Shown: piece after piece, positions 5,740 to 49,437 of the stretch | Position numbering within the stretch: position 1 is the first letter of the stretch | Layout of the letters: every line of letters starts with the position of its first letter | Assembly: GCA_004379135.1 (NCBI GenBank) | Contig: NBNI01000006.1 | Location: 249,160-313,159, forward strand | Direction: 5' to 3' | Source of the DNA: Acidimicrobiales bacterium mtb01 | Lineage (GTDB): Bacteria; Actinomycetota; Acidimicrobiia; Acidimicrobiales; Ilumatobacteraceae | Length of the DNA: 64,000 bases | Program-made: the position numbers and the translations under genes | The notes under the pieces: model-generated | What the model was told of the DNA's origin: nothing | Databases searched by the model: none | The model's input: the letters and a program-made list of their open reading frames with translations, nothing else

Positions 5740-6195
5740 CTACACGGCGACGGCGTCTTCACGCGCGTCGAGTTCGACTTCGAGCCATTGCGCGATGGCC
5801 TTGAGCGACGAGCCCGGACCGAAGATCTCGGCCACGCCCTGTTCGCGGAGCGTGCGGGCATCGGCGTCGGGAATCACACCGCCACCGAACACGAGCATGT
5901 CGGCGAGATCGCGCGAGCGCAGTTCTTCCATCACGCGGGGGAAGAGGGTGAGGTGCGCGCCGGAGAGAAGTGACAGGCCGACCGCATCGACATCTTCTTG
6001 GAGAGCGGTTTCGGCGATCTGCTCGGGCGTTTGGTGCAGACCGGTGTAGATGACCTCGAACCCGTGGTCGCGAAGCGCGCGGGTGATGGTCTTGGCCCCG
6101 CGGTCGTGGCCGTCGAGGCCGGGCTTGGCAACGACGATTCGGTAGGGCCGTATCACGGCGGTAGACCCTAGGTCCTGCCCGCTCGGGGCGCACAT
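5740..6195 (-). CDS. cobalamin (B12)-binding domain protein, methylmalonyl-CoA-mutase small-subunit type
   Basis: VAKPGLDGHDRGAKTITRALRDHGFEVIYTGLHQTPEQI carries the DxHxxG B12-binding signature. The start is uncertain (ATG 6195 or GTG 6156). Confidence 0.85.
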   Translation of the reverse strand: MCAPSGQDLGSTAVIRPYRIVVAKPGLDGHDRGAKTITRALRDHGFEVIYTGLHQTPEQIAETALQEDVDAVGLSLLSGAHLTLFPRVMEELRSRDLADMLVFGGGVIPDADARTLREQGVAEIFGPGSSLKAIAQWLEVELDAREDAVAV

Positions 6196-6250
6196 TTCGC
6201 CCCGAGCAGGCCGTCGACCTGCGCCCCACCGCGAACGCAGGTCGACGCGG

Positions 6251-6913
6251 TCAGTTGGCGCGCAGGATCGCGCCGCCGAACGAGCCGCCGTCCGAGTTGG
6301 CAGCCATCAAGCGGACGACCTGTCCACCCCGGATGATCGCGATCAGGCCATCCGAATCGGCGGCCGTGATCACCTCGAGGGCGTCGTCGGTCGGGATAGT
6401 TGCGGTCTCGTCAATCACGGTCTCAACGACGCCGAGCCCGGTCACCACCGGCTCGAAGCCGGAGTCCCGGCTGTCACGCTGGCCCGAGGTCTCATTGGTC
6501 GAGTTGCCCTCACCATTCGACGACGGCTGGTTCTTGCCGGTCTGGTCGTTGCCGGTCTGGTCGTTGCCGGTCTGGTCGCGGCCCGAGTCCTCGGATGAAT
6601 CGCTCGCGTCATCACCCGCATCGTTCCCGGAATCGCTGGGCTCGCTCTGGTGGGTGTGGTCGCCGTGGCCGTAGCCATGGCCGTTGCCATGATCCTCGTG
6701 ACCGCGGCCGCGGCCGGGGTTCTCGTCTTCGTCGTGGCCGCGAACCGCGTCGGGGTTCGGATGGCCCTTCTCCTCGTGGGCCTCCTGGCTGCGGTTCGAT
6801 GACCTCTCGGCTCCGTTGCTCGCGGCGGCACCCGACATCCCGGCGCCGAGAACGACGGCGGTGGCAGCGGTGAGGGCGAGAGCCAGGCGGAGGGGGCGGC
6901 GGTTGATCTTCAC
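6251..6913 (-). CDS. secreted His/Asp/Gly-rich protein (possible metal-binding); function unknown
   Basis: C-terminal 220 aa of ORF 6251..7255, starting at GTG 6913 with AAGGA 7 nt upstream. The signal-peptide-like N-terminus is VKINRRPLRLALALTAATAVVLGAGMSGAAAS. A His-rich block reads HEDHGNGHGYGHGDHTH, followed by a DQTGN triple repeat. Confidence 0.65.
   Translation of the reverse strand: MKINRRPLRLALALTAATAVVLGAGMSGAAASNGAERSSNRSQEAHEEKGHPNPDAVRGHDEDENPGRGRGHEDHGNGHGYGHGDHTHQSEPSDSGNDAGDDASDSSEDSGRDQTGNDQTGNDQTGKNQPSSNGEGNSTNETSGQRDSRDSGFEPVVTGLGVVETVIDETATIPTDDALEVITAADSDGLIAIIRGGQVVRLMAANSDGGSFGGAILRAN
6536..6580. repeat. 15-bp tandem repeat x3 (gccggtctggtcgtt) inside the His-rich gene
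   Basis: Direct reading: two identical copies, and a third with 2 changes at its 3' end. They encode DQTGN-DQTGN-DQTGK. Confidence 0.9.
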
Positions 6914-7019
6914 GGTGGTTCCTTTCGTTGTGAGCGCCGGTTGCGCTCCCACCGGACAAGAGGCCCCTGGCACACGGTCCTCGCAAAAACTTCGGAAACT
7001 TCTTGGGCAGACTTGGAGG

Positions 7020-7520
7020 GTGCGCCGCCCCGAGTTCCGAACCCCCCTGGCCCGGGCCGTGGCCCCGGTGGCGGCCGGCCTCGGTTTCTTCGCCCTGCTC
7101 GGCCTCCTGCTCTGGGGAATCGCCTCCTTGATGGCCGGTGAACAGGCCCAGACCACCACGTTCACCCCCGATCGGCTGCAGGTCGGTTCGATCACCCGCT
7201 GGGCCGAATCGATCGACACCGACGGGCCCGTGCTCTTCCCGGGACTGGGCACCACGTCGGGCGAGCGGACCCTGGTGCTCGATCACAACGGCACCAACGT
7301 CGAGAAGGGCTGGGTCGTCTACTACGCCTATCCCGCCGACCGCGGCCCCGAGTGCGCGGTCGAACAGGTGGAGGGCACCGACGATTTCGTCGACTGCGAC
7401 GGTCGCACACTCGACGTGACCGAGTTGTCACCGCCCACCAACGGCGAATACCCGATCGTCGAGGATCGCAAGACGGTCTTCATCGACCTCGGCGAACGGC
7501 CGGGCGATACGACTCCTTGA
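7020..7520 (+). CDS. membrane-anchored hypothetical protein
   Basis: 3' part of ORF 6816..7520; the upstream part overlaps the divergent His-rich gene. One hydrophobic helix (AVAPVAAGLGFFALLGLLLWGIASLMAG) precedes a soluble domain. The start is approximate: GTG 7020 lies directly after GGAGG. Confidence 0.5.
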   Translation: MRRPEFRTPLARAVAPVAAGLGFFALLGLLLWGIASLMAGEQAQTTTFTPDRLQVGSITRWAESIDTDGPVLFPGLGTTSGERTLVLDHNGTNVEKGWVVYYAYPADRGPECAVEQVEGTDDFVDCDGRTLDVTELSPPTNGEYPIVEDRKTVFIDLGERPGDTTP

Positions 7521-7534
7521 GTCAGGGCCGTCAG

Positions 7535-8377
7535 TCAGCGCGGAAACAACCGAGGGAACCACGGACCCGACAACGGTTCGCCCGGTGTCCGCGGATCTTC
7601 GTCACCGAACAACCGTGAGAAATCGGGCGAGCACGTCCACTCGCGAGGCGCGTACACCATGTCGTCGCCGAGAACCCGCAGACTGAACACGCGCCGGTGG
7701 CCGTCGCCCGACACACCCGGAGCCCCGTGCACCGTGAGCATGTGGAACGCGATCGCGTCACCGGGCTCGAGCGACCACGACTTGATGTCGAACATGTCGC
7801 GGTTGGCGTCGATGTCGGGAAGTTCGCCGAGCGAACCCTCGGGAAACCACTTCGCTTCCTTCGTGAGGAACGACCGCGGCATGAGCCACGGACCGTGGTG
7901 TGTTCCGGACACCAACTCGAGGCACGACGCCACGTTCACCGGGTCGACCGGAATCCAGAAACTCACGTTCTGGCGTCCTTCGACGTCGTAATACGGCTGG
8001 TCCTGGTGCCACGGTGTGCGCTGCCGTGTTCGCGCCTCCTTCACCAGGACGTGATCGTGATACATGCGAATCGTCTTGCTGTCGGTCAACTGCGCGGCCA
8101 CGTCACCGAGGCTCGTCGTCCGCACGAACTCGGCGAAGGCCGCATGCTCGCGCCAGGTGCAGAAGTCCTCGATGAAGAATCCCGGGTCGTCGGGCGAACT
8201 CGCCACCTTGGCTCGCGGACTCGGCGTCGCGAGGACTTCGTCGATGCCCGTCGTGAGGAGTTCGATTTCGTGCGGCGACACCACACCACGCAGAACCACC
8301 GCACCGTCGCGCCGGTACGTCTCGACGTCGGAACGGCTCACGGCGACACGCGATTCCACCTGTTCATTCTGATACAC
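7535..8377 (-). CDS. phytanoyl-CoA dioxygenase (PhyH) family Fe(II)/2-oxoglutarate oxygenase
   Basis: 280 aa. The HxD facial-triad context is WHQDQPYY, with a distal His in AFHMLTVHGAP and a PhyH-like N-terminus YRRDGAVVLRGV. Confidence 0.8.
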   Translation of the reverse strand: MYQNEQVESRVAVSRSDVETYRRDGAVVLRGVVSPHEIELLTTGIDEVLATPSPRAKVASSPDDPGFFIEDFCTWREHAAFAEFVRTTSLGDVAAQLTDSKTIRMYHDHVLVKEARTRQRTPWHQDQPYYDVEGRQNVSFWIPVDPVNVASCLELVSGTHHGPWLMPRSFLTKEAKWFPEGSLGELPDIDANRDMFDIKSWSLEPGDAIAFHMLTVHGAPGVSGDGHRRVFSLRVLGDDMVYAPREWTCSPDFSRLFGDEDPRTPGEPLSGPWFPRLFPR

Positions 8378-8399
8378 GGCGTCTGATACAAGAGAACGC

Positions 8400-8927
8400 G
8401 TGCCCTATACGCCGATCATCGGAACTCTCGGCTACGTGATCGACCGCTCCAACGACTCGGTGCTGCTCGTCCACCGCAACAAGCGGGCCGGCGACGAACA
8501 TCTCGGCAAGTGGAATGGCCTGGGCGGCAAACTCGAACCGGGTGAAGACCTCGCGGCCGGAATGCGCCGCGAACTTCTCGAAGAGGCGCACATCGAGGTT
8601 CATTCGATGGCTCTGCGCGGAACGATCTCGTGGCCGGGGTTCGGAGCCAACGGCGAGGATTGGTTCGGGCCGATCTTCCTGATCGACAAGTGGAAAGGGA
8701 CGCCTCCGGAATCGAACGCCGAGGGCGACCTGGCCTGGATCGCCACCGACCGCATTCGACGCGCGTGCAGCGACGACCCGGCCGAGCGCGACGCGGCCGA
8801 GTTGCCGATGTGGGAGGGCGACCGGTTCTTCCTGCCATTGGTGTTCGACGCCGACCCGCGGCCCTTCCACGGTGTGATGCCGTACGCCCAGGGACGGCCG
8901 GTGTCGTGGACCTTCGAACGCTGGTGA
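8400..8927 (+). CDS. NUDIX hydrolase (MutT-like)
   Basis: 175 aa. The Nudix box is GKWNGLGGKLEPGEDLAAGMRRELLEEAHI. Confidence 0.88.
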   Translation: MPYTPIIGTLGYVIDRSNDSVLLVHRNKRAGDEHLGKWNGLGGKLEPGEDLAAGMRRELLEEAHIEVHSMALRGTISWPGFGANGEDWFGPIFLIDKWKGTPPESNAEGDLAWIATDRIRRACSDDPAERDAAELPMWEGDRFFLPLVFDADPRPFHGVMPYAQGRPVSWTFERW

Positions 8928-8993
8928 ACACCGCCGCTCACACTGATAACGAGCCGCGCGCACACTGACCTCTCTCGCATTCGTTCCCTCTCC

Positions 8994-9251
8994 ATGCCCG
9001 AGAGGAATTCGTTTTGGCGCCGAACGTTCGACGCCGCCCGTTCGCACGGCGACTGGCACCGCGTCGACAAGCTCTACACACGCAACACGGCCGCACAGAT
9101 CGCGAGCGACATCCGACGCGCGCATCTCGACGGACGACGTTCGATTCGGACACAGGGAATCCGACCGGGTGAGCAGTGGGAAGCACGCTGGGCCGACATC
9201 AGAACGGGTGCTCCGGGCGATTGCGAAGTCTGGATCAGGGTCGTGCGCTGA
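8994..9251 (+). CDS. small conserved-motif protein, paralog A (function unknown)
   Basis: 85 aa. It shares the core W-RV--YT--TAAQIASDIR--H...GI-PGE-W-ARW...WI with the convergent ORF 9261..9593. Confidence 0.6.
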   Translation: MPERNSFWRRTFDAARSHGDWHRVDKLYTRNTAAQIASDIRRAHLDGRRSIRTQGIRPGEQWEARWADIRTGAPGDCEVWIRVVR

Positions 9252-9260
9252 GCGCGCGCG

Positions 9261-9593
9261 TCACTTCTGATAGCCGACGAATTTGATCCAGATGGAGAAA
9301 CTGCCCGGCGGGCACTTCTCGTCGGCACCCCATCGCGCGGTCCACAATTCGCCTGGAAGAATGCCCCGAACCCTCAACGTTTCGAGCGGCCGGCGGTGCG
9401 ACGAGCGAATGTCGCTGGCGATCTGAGCGGCGGTGGACGCGGTGTAGAAACGCTGGACGCGAACCCAACGGTTCTGCTCGCGCGCATCGTCGAGAGCGAG
9501 AACCCAGAACGACTGGCGCTGCCAATGCCCGCCGTTGGGCGGCTCTTCGGCGACGACCCGTCGCGACCCTTTCGACTGGCCCCGCTCCGCCAT
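9261..9593 (-). CDS. small conserved-motif protein, paralog B (function unknown)
   Basis: 110 aa. By-eye alignment to 8994..9251 gives about 45 percent identity over about 80 residues, including the identical decapeptide TAAQIASDIR. Confidence 0.65.
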   Translation of the reverse strand: MAERGQSKGSRRVVAEEPPNGGHWQRQSFWVLALDDAREQNRWVRVQRFYTASTAAQIASDIRSSHRRPLETLRVRGILPGELWTARWGADEKCPPGSFSIWIKFVGYQK

Positions 9594-9698
9594 GCATTCA
9601 GTGTCGTCAATCGAGGCACATCTGTCATCACAATCGGTGAGAACCGTCTACACCATTTTCTTAGACGATTAAGAAGGTCGCTCCAGGTGACGGCGACT

Positions 9699-10289
9699 TC
9701 AAGCGGCCGATGCACCTACACCGTTAGTCGCTAGTCGGTACACGACTAAGCGTGCCTTCTCCTGAGCGCGATGAACCCGACGCAACACCGTCGTGTGCGA
9801 CTCGGCGTTGATGTCGGCCACTTCGGAGTAGTTGAGGCCGACCAGACGCGTGCGGCAGAAGTCGCGCTGTTCGTCGGAGGTCATCGTCGACAGAACGGCA
9901 CCGAGGAGTTCGTGACTCTCGATCTCGCCGGTGGGATCGCAACCCGATGTGTGAGAGTCGAGCGACGCGTCGAGTGACGACACCTCTCGGCCACGACGAG
10001 CCCCTGCGCCGCGCTGGGCATCGTTGCTCCGAATGGCATCGACCAATACGGACCGGCGAACGGCCCGCGCGTAGGCGGCGCCATCGGGGTAACGATCGAC
10101 TTCGTGCTTCACGGTCTTCACCAGACGCAGCGACAGCCGCGACACGGCTTCATCGGCCAAGCCGTACGGCAGTTGGCGCGACTCGAACATTACGCGCGCG
10201 GCGGCCAGCGCCTCGCTCACGAAGGCCTCCTCGCGGGCCGTGAACGCGATCCGCTGGGACGGATGGACTCGACGCTTCGACATGCTCAC
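9699..10289 (-). CDS. sigma-70/ECF-like DNA-binding protein (divergent)
   Basis: 196 aa. The region-2-like stretch is AAYARAVRRSVLVDAIRSNDAQRG. The region-4-like HTH is MTSDEQRDFCRTRLVGLNYSEVADINAESHTTVLRRVHRAQEKAR. Confidence 0.55.
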   Translation of the reverse strand: MSMSKRRVHPSQRIAFTAREEAFVSEALAAARVMFESRQLPYGLADEAVSRLSLRLVKTVKHEVDRYPDGAAYARAVRRSVLVDAIRSNDAQRGAGARRGREVSSLDASLDSHTSGCDPTGEIESHELLGAVLSTMTSDEQRDFCRTRLVGLNYSEVADINAESHTTVLRRVHRAQEKARLVVYRLATNGVGASAA

Positions 10290-10381
10290 TCCTTCGCCGT
10301 CCCGGGTGGTCCGGCGAGCCCAGGGTGACCAAGGGGTGTGTCAGAGAACAGGTGTTCGATTCTCGAACATCACGCAGATCG

Positions 10382-11914
10382 TCACGACGAACTCTTGTCG
10401 CGCAGGTGCCGGCCTATGTACGCCACCACCACTTGCTGCGTCTCGTTGTCGAAGAACACGTGCACGCGATACAGGTTGGCGCCCTTTCCGTTGCGGATGT
10501 GGGCCACCGCGTACTCGGTGCGACCGCGCCAAGTGAACACGTAGTCCTCGGAGAACTTCCGCTCGGCGGTGTCGGAAATTCCACCGGCGTAATTCAGACC
10601 CAGGCTTCGGCAGGAGATGGTGAGCGACGCGTTGTTGATGCGACCGCTCTTCCAGTCCCCCGCCACCACGTCGAGGCGGACCAGATCCTCGAGCAGTCGA
10701 TCGGCGTTGATGCCATCGAGAAGGGCGGCTGTCTCGATGGCGCGCTGGTGAAACGTGAGATGCGTGCACAGATCGCGCGCCTTGGCCACCGCGTCGGATG
10801 CAGACGATGCGCGAAGTTCGGTGCCCCGTTTGCCGAGACGGATCTCGAGGGCGACGTTGCGCTGCACCAGCTGATCGACGAGGCCTTCGCGGTTCTCGAG
10901 CAACTGATTGCGTTCGTCGATGGTGCGATCGGCCTCGGCCAACGCCTGCTCGAGTTCGTCGATGCGGTTGTACGCCTCCTGCCAGCCTTCGAGCGCTGCG
11001 CTGTACTCGTCCCACGGCACCGACTGCTCGGAGACCTCGTTGGTGGCGACGGTCGGGGTCGTTGGGACGACGATCGCCGCCGCGGTCGCGATCGGCTCGA
11101 CCGTCTTCGGTTCGCGCGGGCGGCGAGTGAACGCGGGCGAACGCAACGGCGCCAGCGAGTTGAACGCGGCCTCGTTCACGAGCGCGAGACAATCGCGCAG
11201 TTCGTGTTCAGCTTCGATGGCCGTGACCTTGGAACCGCCCCACTGGCGAACGTCGCGACCGGGCCAGAAGAGAGTGAGACCGCGCGCGTTGAGTACATCG
11301 AGGCCGTAGAGGCCGTGGAACGCCGTACGGGCGGCATCGCCTTCGAGCCTGTACAGATGCGCTTGACCAGCCACACGAAGTCCGATCGACTCGACCTTGT
11401 AGAGCGGCGTACTGCGCGACGGTACGGTCTCCACCAATACGGGCAGCAGTCGACCCTTCGCATCGCAGAACGCCGCCACCTCCTGGGCCGCCATCGACTC
11501 GGATACGAGACGAACGCCCGCGAGCACGCGTTGATTGGCGTCGTACAGCCGAGCGATCTCGAGAACACGGGCCACCAATTTCTGTACCGACGCCGCCGGC
11601 ACGTCGTTGGACGTCGGTGCGATTCGGCGCCCGCCCGGCACGAGGATGACGCGGGCTTCGAACGTGGTGGTCTTCTCGTCACTCGCAATGGTGATCGTGG
11701 TGGTGGCCACCGAATTCCCGGCGAGACCGCGGTCGACCGACATGCGCCACCAGCGTTCGGGCTGATCGTTGTCGACTCGAACCGAGACTCCGGCTTCGCG
11801 TTCCTCGAACGGATGCTCTGCCTCCACCCAATCGGTCACCACCCGACGCACGGCATCGGTCTGTCCGGGCGCCCAAGCCGGTCCATCGAGGCGCATCGCG
11901 TAGACCGGTCGCAT
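10382..11914 (-). CDS. large hypothetical protein with a central coiled coil and a RelE/ParE-like C-terminal signature
   Basis: 510 aa. The composition is protein-like and the antisense + ORF is junk. The coiled coil reads EGWQEAYNRIDELEQALAEADRTIDERNQLLENREGLVDQL. The C-terminus reads YAVAHIRNGKGANLYRVHVFFDNETQQVVVAYIGRHL. I see no Walker or nuclease motifs. Confidence 0.7.
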   Translation of the reverse strand: MRPVYAMRLDGPAWAPGQTDAVRRVVTDWVEAEHPFEEREAGVSVRVDNDQPERWWRMSVDRGLAGNSVATTTITIASDEKTTTFEARVILVPGGRRIAPTSNDVPAASVQKLVARVLEIARLYDANQRVLAGVRLVSESMAAQEVAAFCDAKGRLLPVLVETVPSRSTPLYKVESIGLRVAGQAHLYRLEGDAARTAFHGLYGLDVLNARGLTLFWPGRDVRQWGGSKVTAIEAEHELRDCLALVNEAAFNSLAPLRSPAFTRRPREPKTVEPIATAAAIVVPTTPTVATNEVSEQSVPWDEYSAALEGWQEAYNRIDELEQALAEADRTIDERNQLLENREGLVDQLVQRNVALEIRLGKRGTELRASSASDAVAKARDLCTHLTFHQRAIETAALLDGINADRLLEDLVRLDVVAGDWKSGRINNASLTISCRSLGLNYAGGISDTAERKFSEDYVFTWRGRTEYAVAHIRNGKGANLYRVHVFFDNETQQVVVAYIGRHLRDKSSS

Positions 11915-11959
11915 CCCTCCAGTCTCGCCCCTCGTCCCGGCACCTCCTACCCTCGGAAC

Positions 11960-12412
11960 ATGTTCGATGCCTGGTCAGATGCAACGGCGGAGGCTCTGGT
12001 TCTGGCCAACGCCGCGGCCGCTCTCGTGATGACCGGGCTCATCTGGTTCGTGCAGATCGTCCACTATCCCCTGCTGGCCGGCACACCGGCCGATCGCAGT
12101 ACGGATGTGGCCGCGGAACATCAACGACGCACCTCGTACGTCGTCGCGGTGCCGATGGCGGTCGAAGGCATCACGACTCTCGCGCTCCTCGTCGATCGTC
12201 CGGGCGACGTCGCACTGGTCTGGCCGTGGCTCGGAGCACTTCTCGTCGCGATCGCACTCGGGTCCACCATCTTGTTGTCGGTCCCGCTGCACGCACGCAT
12301 GGCCCTCGCGTTCGATCCGAACACGGGCCCGAGGCTGGTTCTCACCAACTGGCCGCGAACCGTCGCTTGGACACTTCACGGTGTCGTCGGTCTGGTGATG
12401 CTCGCGCCGTAG
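11960..12412 (+). CDS. small polytopic membrane protein (DUF1772-like, tentative)
   Basis: The last 150 aa of ORF 10325..12412, starting at ATG 11960. About four hydrophobic helices. The upstream 545 codons of that ORF are antisense to the 510-aa gene. Confidence 0.6.
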   Translation: MFDAWSDATAEALVLANAAAALVMTGLIWFVQIVHYPLLAGTPADRSTDVAAEHQRRTSYVVAVPMAVEGITTLALLVDRPGDVALVWPWLGALLVAIALGSTILLSVPLHARMALAFDPNTGPRLVLTNWPRTVAWTLHGVVGLVMLAP

Positions 12413-12442
12413 GCTGACGTTCGATCGGGCAGGAGAACGCTC

Positions 12443-14131
12443 ATGGACAATCAGACCGGCGTCGACAGCTCGGGATTCGAAGAACTCGGCCTACGGCCGC
12501 AACTGCTCGCGTCGTTGTCGGCGCTCGGCTATGAGGAGCCCACGCCGATCCAGCGCGAGGCGATCCCTCTCCTCCTACGCGGACACGACCTGCTCGGCCA
12601 GGCGGCTACCGGAACCGGAAAGACCGCCGCCTTCGCGTTGCCGATCCTCGAAAAGATCGACGTAGCGCGATCGAAGCCGGCCCCCTCGGCGCTCGTGCTC
12701 GTTCCCACTCGTGAACTCGCCATGCAGGTGAGCGAGGCCATCTACAAATACGGCCATCAACTCGGTGCCAAGTGCGTTCCCATCTACGGCGGTCAGCCCA
12801 TCGGTCGCCAGATCGACGCATTGCGTCGCGGAACCCACGTGGTCGTCGCGACGCCCGGCCGTGCCCTCGACCACATCCGCAAGGAGACGCTCGAGTTGGG
12901 CGACGTCGAGATGGTCGTCCTCGACGAGGCCGACGAGATGCTCGACATGGGATTCGCCGAAGACCTCGACGCGATCCTCGAATCGCTGCCGGCCGCGCGT
13001 CAAACCGTTCTCTTCTCGGCCACCATGCCGCCGCGCATCGAGAAGATCGCGCGCGAGCATCTGAGCGAACCGGTGCGCGTCACGATCGAACGCAAGGCCA
13101 GCCAGCCCGGCTCCATTCCTCTGGTACGGCAGACCGCGTACATGGTGCCGCGCTTCCACAAGCCTGCCGCACTCGGTCGAATCCTCGATATCGAAGCCCC
13201 TGAAGCCGCAATCGTCTTCTGCCGCACACGCGGTGAAGTCGATCAACTCACCGAGACGCTGAACGGTCGCGGCTACCGAGCCGAGGCCCTCCACGGCGGC
13301 ATGGACCAGGAACAGCGCGACCGTGTGATGGGACGCGTGCGTGCCGGCACCGCCGATCTCTTGATCGCCACCGATGTGGCCGCGCGCGGGCTCGACATCG
13401 AGCACCTCACGCACGTGGTCAACTTCGACGTACCGTCGGCACCCGAGTCGTACGTCCACCGCATCGGCCGCGTGGGTCGGGCCGGTCGCGAGGGCGTGGC
13501 CATCACCATCGCCGAGCCGCGCGAGCAGCGCATGCTCCACAACATCGAACGTCTCACCAAGCAGAAGATCTCGTTCGAGAAGGTTCCGTCGGTCGAGGCT
13601 CTTCGAGCCAAGCAGATGGAACTCACCACGGAGAACGTGCGCGAAGCCCTCGGTCTTCCCGATCTGGTCGCTTTCGACGAAGTGATCGACGAACTCTCCA
13701 AGGAATTCTCCATCACCGACATCGCGCGCGCGGCCATCAAATTGGCGCACGACGCCGAACAGTCGACACTCGAAGAAGTCGAGATCCCCGATCTGTCGGT
13801 CGAGCGGCCCGAACGCGGCGGCAAGCGCGAACGCGACTCGTTCCGTGACCGCGAACACGGCGGCAAGCGCGAGCGTGGCGAACGCTTCAGCGGAAAGACT
13901 TCGCGGCTCTGGGTGTCGGTCGGTCGCAAGTCGGGTGTTCGTCCGGCCGATCTGGTGGGTGCCATCGCCAACGAGAGCGGTGTGCCCGGTCGCGACATCG
14001 GTGTGCGCATCTTCGACTCGCACTCGGTCGTCGAGGTTCCAGCATCTCGCGCCGCGCACGTGATCGACTCGATGCGCAACACCATCATCCGCGGAAAGCG
14101 CGCGACGGTGCGCCACTTCAAGGAGGACTGA
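12443..14131 (+). CDS. DEAD-box ATP-dependent RNA helicase (DeaD/CsdA-like with a DbpA-type C-terminal RNA-binding domain)
   Basis: 562 aa. Q-motif/Walker A AATGTGKT, then DEAD (VLDEADEM), SAT and HRIGRVGRAG motifs. The R/E-rich linker is followed by a C-terminal domain RLWVSVGRKSGVRPADLVGAI. Confidence 0.95.
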   Translation: MDNQTGVDSSGFEELGLRPQLLASLSALGYEEPTPIQREAIPLLLRGHDLLGQAATGTGKTAAFALPILEKIDVARSKPAPSALVLVPTRELAMQVSEAIYKYGHQLGAKCVPIYGGQPIGRQIDALRRGTHVVVATPGRALDHIRKETLELGDVEMVVLDEADEMLDMGFAEDLDAILESLPAARQTVLFSATMPPRIEKIAREHLSEPVRVTIERKASQPGSIPLVRQTAYMVPRFHKPAALGRILDIEAPEAAIVFCRTRGEVDQLTETLNGRGYRAEALHGGMDQEQRDRVMGRVRAGTADLLIATDVAARGLDIEHLTHVVNFDVPSAPESYVHRIGRVGRAGREGVAITIAEPREQRMLHNIERLTKQKISFEKVPSVEALRAKQMELTTENVREALGLPDLVAFDEVIDELSKEFSITDIARAAIKLAHDAEQSTLEEVEIPDLSVERPERGGKRERDSFRDREHGGKRERGERFSGKTSRLWVSVGRKSGVRPADLVGAIANESGVPGRDIGVRIFDSHSVVEVPASRAAHVIDSMRNTIIRGKRATVRHFKED

Positions 14132-48288: not shown

Positions 48289-49437
48289 TCAGCCCCGTGT
48301 GACTGGTTCACCACCCCAGCGTTCGAGGGCCGCCAACGCCTCGGCGAGAGTCGACACGGTCTCGATTTCCACCGAGGCACCGACCGCACGTCGAGCCGCT
48401 TCCACATCGGCCGGGTCCTGGCCGGCCGGAACGATGAAGTGGCGCGCACCCGATCGCTTGACGGCGATGGCCTTCTGGACGAGCGCGCCGATCGGACCGA
48501 CCGAGCCGTCTTCGGCGATGGTTCCGGTGAGAGCCACTCCCCCGGGCGGCGAGAGTTCGCCCGGCGACAACTCGTCGATGAGCGCGACGGTGAACGCCAA
48601 ACCGGCCGACGGACCACCGATCTCGTCGGTGTCGATGCCGATCTCGAACGGCAACTTCACCGTGCGCGTGTCGCGGGCGTTGAAACCGATGATCGTGCGA
48701 TTCGGATCGTCGGGGCTCGCCATCAATTCGACCTTCACGGTTCGCACCTCATCGGCCGGGGCGTCGAAGGGTCGGACCACGAGGCGGATCACGTCGCCGG
48801 GTTCGGCCTCGGCCAACGCCTTCGACAGATCGGTCACCACGTCGATGTCGATGGTGTCATCGGCCGATCCGGTGGCTTGTGGCGTGAGGTCGACCTTCAA
48901 GATCGTGTCGCCCACCGACAGCACGCGACAAGCCCGAAGCTCGGGCGCGTCGTCGGGGCACAGCGCCGGATCGAAGCCGCCGACCTGGGCGGGACCCATG
49001 TCGAACGACGCATCGAGTCCGAGATAGTCGAGTGCGACGAACGATGCGATCTCCTTCGCCGTCGACATAGCACCGAGCTGGATCGTGCGATTGGCGTCGG
49101 GATCGCAATCGCCGAACCGCTGTTCGCAGGTCTGCACGTCGACGTACGGGTCGATCCAACCCATGAACGACTGGAGCGGAGCCAACTCGCTGCCGAGAGC
49201 CGTCACGAAACGAACACTTCGATCGGGCTCGAAGATGCCCACGCCGTCGGTCGCACCCTCGATGGAGACGCGGGGGGCGACCAATTTGGCCCGTCCGGGT
49301 GCGGTTTCGAATCGCTGCATCGGCCAGACCATCGCTCCGAGCACCGCGACAATCACGAGAAAAGCAAGGGTCGCGAACGGAACGCCCCACACCGGACGCG
49401 TGGCCCCGGCTACTTTGTCTTCTCGAGTGTCACTCAC
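48289..49437 (-). CDS. PDZ-domain Lon-like (S16) serine protease, YlbL/SepM type
   Basis: It has a TM anchor and a PDZ-like region. The Lon_C motifs are IGGPSAGLAFTVALID and GTIAEDGSVGPIGALVQKAIA. The start is GTG 49437 or GTG 49390; the longer track ORF is rejected. Confidence 0.85.
   Translation of the reverse strand: MSDTREDKVAGATRPVWGVPFATLAFLVIVAVLGAMVWPMQRFETAPGRAKLVAPRVSIEGATDGVGIFEPDRSVRFVTALGSELAPLQSFMGWIDPYVDVQTCEQRFGDCDPDANRTIQLGAMSTAKEIASFVALDYLGLDASFDMGPAQVGGFDPALCPDDAPELRACRVLSVGDTILKVDLTPQATGSADDTIDIDVVTDLSKALAEAEPGDVIRLVVRPFDAPADEVRTVKVELMASPDDPNRTIIGFNARDTRTVKLPFEIGIDTDEIGGPSAGLAFTVALIDELSPGELSPPGGVALTGTIAEDGSVGPIGALVQKAIAVKRSGARHFIVPAGQDPADVEAARRAVGASVEIETVSTLAEALAALERWGGEPVTRG

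Follow-up and report, generated by a model that had tools for sequence, protein, structure and literature searches.

A divergent HEC-07-type gene and a separate, probably SOS-controlled pair of sigma-like and small-protein genes in a variable slot of a freshwater acidimicrobial genome

The locus described here lies in a 64,000-nucleotide (nt) stretch of Acidimicrobiales bacterium mtb01 (contig NBNI01000006.1, positions 249,160 to 313,159), hereafter the window, in which positions are counted unless a contig or locus is named. It centers on three minus-strand genes, which encode a protein of 510 amino acids (aa; 10382-11914), a sigma-like protein of 194 or 196 aa (9699-10283 or 9699-10289), and a 110-aa protein that we call sm (9261-9593). 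On balance, we favor a reading in which the locus combines an autonomous, divergent gene of HEC-07 type, predicted to encode a single-chain anti-phage ribonuclease (RNase), with a separate and rare sigma-like/sm pair, probably SOS-controlled, both of them in a variable slot. A first-pass annotation of this DNA had placed the three open reading frames (ORFs; 510, 196, and 110 aa) at the positions confirmed here and had joined them into one self-contained module.

The 510-aa Protein as a Divergent HEC-07 Member

Scans of the 510-aa protein against Pfam, NCBIfam, and PHROGs returned only coiled-coil noise, with a weak SlyX-like match, and a sequence-profile search of the PDB with its family found coiled coils only. 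PADLOC model PDLC04161, which represents HEC-07, matches residues 317-507 at model positions 352-551 of 553 (E 4.4e-15). When the N-terminal 267 aa were scanned alone, residues 69-196 matched positions 107-233 of the same model (E 2.5e-7), collinear with the C-terminal match. Five relatives of the protein match as many as four HEC-07 models, with one unbroken match over residues 127-488. Models of NsnC, a component of the Menshen system, match the C-terminal part of the 510-aa protein at 1e-10. In HEC-07 proteins, an AdoMetDC-like domain at the N terminus is combined with a thioredoxin-like domain that lacks CxxC and with a RelE-family domain at the C terminus, in which a histidine is conserved; one representative, as a single gene, lowered phage plaquing in Escherichia coli (Payne et al., bioRxiv 10.1101/2024.01.29.577857).

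An AlphaFold2 model of the 510-aa protein, built on 32 homologues (mean predicted local distance difference test, pLDDT, 82), places five regions along the minus-strand gene. A beta-rich, START/helix-grip-like N-domain (aa 1-105; 11600-11914) with weak Foldseek matches to SRPBCC/START proteins is followed by a thioredoxin-like domain without CxxC (aa 106-255; 11150-11599; Foldseek probability 1.0, template modeling score up to 0.68), a disordered Pro/Thr-rich linker (aa 256-300; 11015-11149; pLDDT below 50 at residues 262-297), and a coiled-coil hairpin of helices 301-340 and 342-362 (aa 301-365; 10820-11014). The chain ends in a helical region and four-stranded sheet (aa 366-510; 10385-10819; modeled elements 372-502), the putative RelE/BECR-type RNase domain covered by the HEC-07 and NsnC models. 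Residues H472, R474, R483, H503, and R505 are invariant in 32 sequences of the family, and from the model coordinates H503 would be the equivalent of HEC-07 H543. Mean pairwise identity is 42-47% in the N-terminal domains (47% for aa 1-105) versus 78% in the C-terminal sheet/RNase core, the pattern of a variable sensor, presumed to be the N-domain, joined to a conserved effector.

Because the collinear PADLOC matches come together with a thioredoxin fold without CxxC and invariant C-terminal His and Arg residues, we file the 510-aa protein as a divergent member of HEC-07. These sequence and model comparisons speak to family and architecture and not to activity; RNase activity and a role in phage defense we infer by analogy with the tested HEC-07 representative. 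The RelE/BECR assignment of such C-terminal domains, with its H-R-H triad, comes from the literature, in which the NsnC C-terminal domain of Menshen is likewise classed as BECR (PB-BECR1 effector domain; PMC12065111). With this literature and the HEC-07 and NsnC model matches, the toxin-like end noticed by the first-pass annotation can be specified as a RelE/BECR-type module. A type II RelE/ParE toxin-antitoxin system was ruled out, since the domain here forms the end of a 510-aa chain, has no Pfam RelE/ParE match, and has no recognizable antitoxin adjacent to it. Menshen NsnABC was also ruled out: the neighbors are the sigma-like gene and a small membrane protein, and a PADLOC scan restricted to the adjacent sigma-like and two small proteins found no Nsn model match.

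An Autonomous Gene at a Fixed Chromosomal Position

A word-indexed search returned 105 homologues of the 510-aa protein, nearly all full-length (341-589 aa) and 32-95% identical to it; those with organism names all belong to Actinomycetota or to Ilumatobacteraceae metagenome-assembled genomes (MAGs). The gene is present in 19 of the 121 family genomes, in 7 of 61 genera, and its carriers have genomes of 1.5-2.8 Mb. Sixteen of these 19 genomes, in six other genera, hold neither partner gene, and two, both of the window's genus, also hold the sigma-like gene. Around the remote homologues (loci L043-L057), no sigma-like or sm gene lies within about 10 kb. Within the genus the HEC-07-like gene always occupies the same chromosomal region, beside NUDIX and PhyH genes. 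The protein is 45-51% identical to its copies in genomes G097 and G060, versus 68-73% for the NUDIX and PhyH proteins of the same two species, and the gene thus evolves faster than its flanks. Viral contigs yielded no HEC-07-like or sigma-like relative.

Two observations on related records may be noted. At loci L003 and L004 (5422-7479 of those loci), the block of HEC-07-like and membrane-protein genes is inverted relative to NUDIX, and no sm genes lie between. Third-party annotation MAG records that carry this Acidimicrobiia-type locus (L063, L065, L071, and L076) are titled 'uncultured Bifidobacterium sp.', labels that appear to be wrong.

A Rare Pair of Sigma-Like and Small Proteins

Two starts are available to the sigma-like gene, GTG at 10289 (196 aa) and ATG at 10283 (194 aa). 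The second is more likely because all 33 close homologues begin with MSKRR and are 194 aa long, and a GAAGGAG ribosome-binding site precedes it. TIGR02937 covers residues 31-180 of the protein (E 9.2e-7; 28.6 bits versus a cut-off of 42.9), and Pfam Sigma70_ECF scores 20.4 versus a cut-off of 21.1. A profile of the family and its divergent relatives finds E. coli sigma-E (1or7) in the PDB at E 0.0036, and the best PDB matches of this profile are nearly all extracytoplasmic function (ECF) sigma factors or sigma-like domains such as PhyR. A relative in G053 passes Sigma70_r4_2 (33.2 versus 25.7). By these profile comparisons the protein is ECF-like in both halves; the region-2- and region-4-like segments described earlier are therefore supported by TIGR02937, Sigma70_ECF, and sigma-E, although the scores are those of a divergent protein below the cut-offs. 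The absence of an anti-sigma partner, remarked on at the same time, also stands: no anti-sigma domain was detected, and the adjacent sm protein has a model unlike the helical anti-sigma domain. A co-encoded anti-sigma factor is typical of ECF sigma factors, though not universal.

The 33 close homologues are 75-93% identical to the sigma-like protein, and the reading frame is intact. It has no paralogue in its own genome and is found in 2 of 121 family genomes and 3 of 301 order genomes (E up to 1e-8), while a metagenome scan recovered three near-identical loci only. The cultured-phage database gave no match for either the sigma-like protein or sm. Among the 301 order genomes, the sigma-like gene and sm each occur in three; both occur in two, this genome and G053, and in both they are adjacent. 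In G053 their order is reversed, the gap is 19 nt, and the context, a sulfatase and an RDD protein, is unrelated; the two genes are also close together on contig C9 of G009. Neighborhood analysis thus shows that the pairing recurs elsewhere, as the first-pass annotation had suggested it might, and this is the one link at the locus that synteny cannot explain.

The 110-aa sm protein, which carries the motif TAAQIASDIR, faces a plus-strand paralogue of 85 aa (8994-9251) that was overlooked before and belongs to the same unit. The two genes are convergent, with 3' ends 9 nt apart, and their products share 46% identity (BLASTP, E 6e-25). The convergent pair is kept in G060 and in loci L001, L005, and L060-L072. 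No Pfam, NCBIfam, PHROG, or PADLOC entry matches the 110-aa protein, in keeping with its description as an unrecognized family, and Pfam searches with 77 diverse sm members matched no family consistently. An exhaustive profile search found only 107 clusters among 1.84 billion representative proteins. The AlphaFold2 model (pLDDT 74) has an alpha-beta-alpha-beta-beta order with no relative in the PDB (best E 0.6) and only weak likeness to uncharacterized actinophage proteins. A Myb/SANT-like helix-turn-helix (HTH) fold is no more than a lead: an hhalign match with 90% probability to one eukaryotic SHAQKYF-type repeat was uncorroborated, 0 of 77 members match Pfam Myb, no PDB profile matched, and AlphaFold2 predicts a strand where the second helix is due. 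One homologue (P0206, 435 aa) is a C-terminal fusion to a histone-deacetylase-family domain (PF00850, 1.5e-29), and a few others have N-terminal extensions of 100-140 aa of unknown type; the fusions gave no clear functional hint.

Five IMG/VR contigs carry sm homologues, surrounded by small genes of early type, a WhiB-like regulator among them. All five are phage contigs of low GC, 37-196 kb long (L086, with the gene at 5977-6255, IMG/VR UViG_3300042569_002957; and L087-L090), presumably from phages of freshwater Actinobacteria, and on them a 92-aa sm homologue comes directly after a 94-aa HTH-like ORF and near the WhiB-like gene. In genomes without a HEC-07-like gene, sm lies beside a GmrSD/HNH enzyme and an integrase-like gene (G009, contig C21), beside a GmrSD_C/Excalibur protein (G009, contig C9), or, in G166, beside an Xis-like HTH gene and genes that by sequence alone look like type I restriction-modification genes. 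The small HTH proteins beside sm in the phage contig and in G166 were examined as sigma relatives and rejected, as they are not homologous to sigma region 4. The sm protein probably originated in mobile elements and probably acts as a regulator associated with nucleic acid or with sigma factors.

A Putative LexA Operator Upstream of the Sigma-Like Gene

The gaps between the three minus-strand genes measure 92 and 105 nt, and they were footprinted by aligning six orthologous loci that are closely related to one another. Upstream of the sigma-like gene, a 26-nt block, CGAACACCTGTTCTCTGACACACCCC, is invariant across the six, and the stretch between it and the preceding stop codon is variable. The block holds a putative LexA box, TCGAACACCTGTTCTC (TCGAAC-ACCT-GTTCTC; 10344-10359, minus strand), 57-68 nt upstream of the sigma-like start. 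This box, likewise invariant, matches perfectly the left half of the actinobacterial SOS box consensus tCGAAC-N4-GNNCGa (PMC9380542). The lexA gene of this genome (C1:131332-132000) has an operator with the same core, its promoter carrying CGAACGCGTGTTCG and GAGAACACCTGTTCGG, and related boxes stand at recA (CGAACGGGTGTTCG) and at a dnaE2-like gene (TCGAACATATGTTCGA, 26 nt upstream of the start). A stricter palindrome, GAACANNTGTTC, occurs 6 times in 2.56 Mb versus about 0.8 expected from base composition, and the lexA, dnaE2, and sigma-like sites are among the six. The copies other than those at lexA and the sigma-like gene lie upstream of the dnaE2-like gene (C5:73943), upstream of an SDR-like gene (C5:51963), at the start of a 595-aa ORF (C1:163753), and between yidD and dnaA (C2:495021). 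Together with lexA and recA, these copies suggest a very small SOS regulon in this streamlined genome. Three features make the case for LexA, namely the position of the site, its identity to the lexA operator, and the footprint, and from them we hold it somewhat more probable than its opposite that the sigma-like gene is under a LexA operator. A further perfect 14-bp SOS-box-like palindrome, CGAACCGCTGTTCG, lies inside a 473-aa minus-strand coding frame (49113-49126) and is probably fortuitous.

Two palindromes had been singled out in these gaps before, and both exist on the minus strand: TGTTCGA-GAA-TCGAACA (10353-10369), after the stop codon of the HEC-07-like gene, and TTCTTA-ATCGTC-TAAGAA (9658-9675). 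Their size, however, is unexceptional, the 3.2 kb of the locus containing 95 inverted pairs of at least 6 nt, and neither is fully conserved in the orthologous loci, where the first lacks conservation in its left arm and the second in its right arm. The invariant 26-nt block, and the putative LexA box in it, extend over the right arm of the first palindrome. In a terminator scan, the sole terminator-like score went to the hairpin that follows the 510-aa gene, and a sigma-70 promoter scan of the locus found no match.

A second footprint lies upstream of the 110-aa gene (9605-9675, minus strand); it includes the 9658-9675 palindrome, and about 45 nt of it are conserved. In several species, sm genes have upstream of them the motif AACnGTCT, followed after about 10 nt by GTrTAsAC, both where a sigma-like gene comes before them and where none does; the motif may be a promoter for some sigma factor or an operator. 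The block itself is, to judge from this conservation, probably the 110-aa gene's own promoter or operator. That sm keeps such a block without the sigma-like gene argues for separate transcription units.

A Slot with Interchangeable Cargo

The host genome (2.56 Mb in 7 contigs, 97.7% complete) belongs to a freshwater member of the Ilumatobacteraceae, of the acIV lineage of Acidimicrobiia. At 63-66%, the G+C content of the locus equals that of its surroundings and bears no mark of recent import. The flanks are as first described, with a NUDIX gene on one side (Pfam 2.3e-15) and a small membrane protein and a DEAD-box helicase on the other. An Rfam scan of 8300-12600 found zero RNA families. A perfect 10-bp palindrome, GAACATGTTC (11973-11982), spans the start codon of the membrane-protein gene that diverges from the HEC-07-like gene; it was rejected as a site, not being conserved in orthologues, and is probably coding chance. 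With moderate confidence, we regard the stretch as a small accessory islet of two functionally separate units in a fixed chromosomal slot between the NUDIX and the membrane-protein/DEAD-box helicase genes.

What lies between the HEC-07-like gene and the sm pair differs among related loci. The slot is empty in G097 and L064, holds a major facilitator superfamily (MFS) transporter in L001 and L067-L071, and holds a very divergent sigma-like gene in L065 and L066. In the sister species G060 it is occupied by an island (L034, G060:C52:4000-21000, at 5765-12553) that encodes ARPP-1 (PF20208, 8e-54), a sigma-like protein, a protein of 259 aa, a PafBC-like WYL regulator in fused form, a protein of 274 aa, and an ADP-ribosylglycohydrolase (ARG)-phosphatase fusion of ARG-DSPc type. 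The PafBC-like regulator is a single chain of about 660 aa with double WYL/WCX, and a distant similarity connects the two proteins of about 260 aa. Metagenome locus L005 (7576-12681) has the G060-type set without ARPP-1, plus a Macro-domain gene and two sigma-like genes upstream. ARG-centered conflict systems are predicted to counter viral ADP-ribosylation (Iyer, Burroughs, Anantharaman, Aravind 2022, PMC9503650).

Removal of five genes from the G060 order gives exactly the order and orientation of the window. A whole-genome tblastn search with the G060 and L005 components found no ARG-DSPc, ARPP-1, or 259/274-aa proteins; the one exception among ARG-system components is an ordinary PafBC-like pair elsewhere in the genome. 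An ARG-centered conflict system at this locus was ruled out on these grounds, there being no ARG, phosphatase, or ARPP gene, and an adjacent NUDIX protein without an HTH domain. The arrangement in the window is best read as a reduced version of the ARG/WYL/ARPP island and not as an operon built around a sigma factor. The accessory, conflict-related rather than metabolic character that the first-pass annotation ascribed to the locus is supported.

Proposed Function and Alternative Explanations

We propose that the START-like and thioredoxin-like domains of the HEC-07-like protein would sense infection, and that the coiled coil joins them to the RelE/BECR-type RNase domain, which on infection would cleave RNA and stop phage or host translation. 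Separately, LexA would repress the sigma-like gene in undamaged cells. DNA damage, for example from ultraviolet light or from phage or prophage activity, would lead to RecA-stimulated cleavage of LexA and release of the sigma-like gene, whose product could then redirect RNA polymerase to other targets. The sm protein, here duplicated as a convergent pair, would be made from its own promoter-like block. A bolder version would make the sigma-like and sm genes an undescribed two-gene cassette of mobile-element origin under LexA control, in which the SOS response licenses alternative transcription, possibly including that of the HEC-07-like RNase or the convergent sm pair, and sm is a new sigma partner that phages carry to interfere; we offer this as speculation with a slim chance of being right.

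Several observations weigh against the reading proposed here. The sigma-like protein falls below every curated threshold. For a defense gene, it is unusual that the HEC-07-like gene is fixed at one locus across the genus. The RelE assignment rests on PADLOC models and literature: the C-terminal domain has no Pfam RelE/ParE match (E up to 1) and no PDB profile match, and RelE structures are absent from the top 50 whole-chain Foldseek matches in the PDB. PADLOC model coverage of the 510-aa protein is partial, and a strict PADLOC call might not be made. The looser core GAAC-N4-GTTC occurs 77 times in the genome, so that a lone site could be chance, and its count in the window is not above shuffled expectation. 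Moreover, no LexA box was found upstream of divergent sigma-like or sm genes elsewhere; it was found only in the clade of close relatives, and the LexA wiring would therefore be specific to this clade.

These last points are also the substance of one alternative, in which the box match is fortuitous, the conserved block is the sigma-like promoter or the terminator of the upstream gene, and the sigma-like gene itself is decaying, left over from an island since lost. The close relationship of the six aligned loci and the absence here of the ARG system that accompanies sigma-like genes elsewhere fit such a history, but the excess of the stricter GAACANNTGTTC, with one copy at lexA and one at dnaE2, the intergenic position of the site at a promoter-compatible distance, and an intact sigma-like frame conserved at 75-93% over its 33 homologues speak against it. 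We consider this alternative unlikely, though one to be taken seriously. The HEC-07-like gene could instead have no part in immunity. Its product would be a stress or dormancy RNase that is fixed in this lineage of streamlined freshwater Acidimicrobiia, passes down vertically, and under stress acts on the RNA of the cell itself. That would account for the gene's position in the same slot across the genus and in many metagenome contigs, its retention in genomes of 1.5-2.8 Mb, its absence from the viral contigs searched, and the ordinary metabolic genes beside some remote homologues. It sits poorly with the collinear homology to HEC-07, of which the representative tested is protective against phages, with a patchy distribution (7 of 61 genera), with faster divergence than the flanks and a variable N-terminal part attached to a conserved effector, and with the conflict genes that adjoin the HEC-07-like gene in G060 and L005; we give it only a modest chance.

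The module originally envisaged, in which a dedicated sigma-like factor drives the toxin-ended 510-aa protein and sm acts as a modulator, has in its favor that the genes are co-directional and close together, that the trio is conserved in close relatives, and that divergent sigma-like genes lie near HEC-07-like genes in G060, L005, L065, and L066. The exact trio, however, is confined to close relatives with 85-94% protein identity, where its recurrence is ordinary vertical synteny. The sigma-like gene lies downstream of the 510-aa gene and not upstream, it accompanies 2 of 19 HEC-07-like genomes while 16 in six other genera do without both partners, its slot is variable in sister species and empty or filled by an MFS transporter in some, sm has its own upstream block, and HEC-07 is a single-gene family that works as such. 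A self-contained trio is thus improbable; the defense or stress interpretation behind it was right in spirit and the toxin-like tail is real, but a dedicated sigma factor for the large protein is unsupported. More improbable still would be a role for the sm proteins as antitoxin-like or immunity partners to the RelE-type domain, with the phage homologues as anti-defense mimics. Of 26 species-level loci, about 16 do have sm genes no more than 6 kb from the HEC-07-like gene, homologues are present on five phage contigs, and the sm fold has no known relative. The association is nevertheless limited to one genus-level lineage and one chromosomal slot; sm occurs in genomes without a HEC-07-like gene (G009, G053, G102, and G166) and is missing from most genomes with one, HEC-07 needs no partner, and no immunity or antitoxin family matches consistently.

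Our preferred reading, of an autonomous HEC-07-type gene beside a separate sigma-like/sm pair, leaves current understanding intact. The HEC-07 family is known, and what is modestly novel is the regulatory pair. The result extends the single-gene HEC-07 defense family into abundant, uncultivated freshwater Acidimicrobiia, where vertical inheritance at a fixed locus, and not island shuffling, bears on how small genomes retain immunity. The slot between the HEC-07-like and sm genes is a hotspot whose interchangeable cargo may be nothing, an MFS transporter, a sigma-like gene, or an ARG/WYL/ARPP system. With phage-borne sm homologues and a predicted LexA operator, the sigma-like/sm pair offers a concrete small system in which to consider DNA-damage signaling to accessory actinobacterial regulators.

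Comparison with Known Systems

Like group IV ECF sigma-70 factors such as E. coli sigma-E, the sigma-like protein has region-2- and region-4-like segments of the right size and in the right order; unlike them, it has sub-cut-off scores, no adjacent anti-sigma factor of a known type, a very narrow distribution, and sm as its neighbor. The putative operator resembles those of the actinobacterial LexA/SOS regulon in its match to the left half of the consensus and in the core common to the lexA, recA, and dnaE2 boxes, but its target here would be a sigma-like regulator in an accessory islet and not a repair gene. The tie to ARG-centered systems lies in G060 and L005, where an ARG-phosphatase fusion and a WYL regulator stand between the HEC-07-like and sm genes, with sigma-like genes nearby, whereas the window has no ARG, phosphatase, WYL or Nudix transcription factor, or ARPP.

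The C-terminal 140-170 or so residues of the 510-aa protein share with NsnC of Menshen the 1e-10 model match and a His/Arg/His pattern that fits a BECR-type RNase. In contrast to NsnC, the protein has no NsnA (ParB-DUF262) or NsnB (ABC ATPase/DUF3696) neighbors and no inactive-PIN N-domain, and carries a HEC-07-type N-half instead. From HEC-07 itself it differs in being very divergent and only partially covered (E 1e-15 C-terminal, 1e-7 N-terminal). The described HEC-07 proteins (models PDLC04158-04161) are proteobacterial and Hma-embedded, as their name, Hma-embedded candidate 07, states, whereas the 510-aa protein is actinobacterial, lies outside Hma, and keeps one fixed slot across its genus. 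It nonetheless has what defines the family in outline: a single chain of about 500-550 aa in which an N-terminal alpha/beta domain leads to a thioredoxin-like domain that lacks CxxC and, through a helical connector, to a RelE-type domain at the C terminus with its conserved histidine, all in the order seen in HEC-07.

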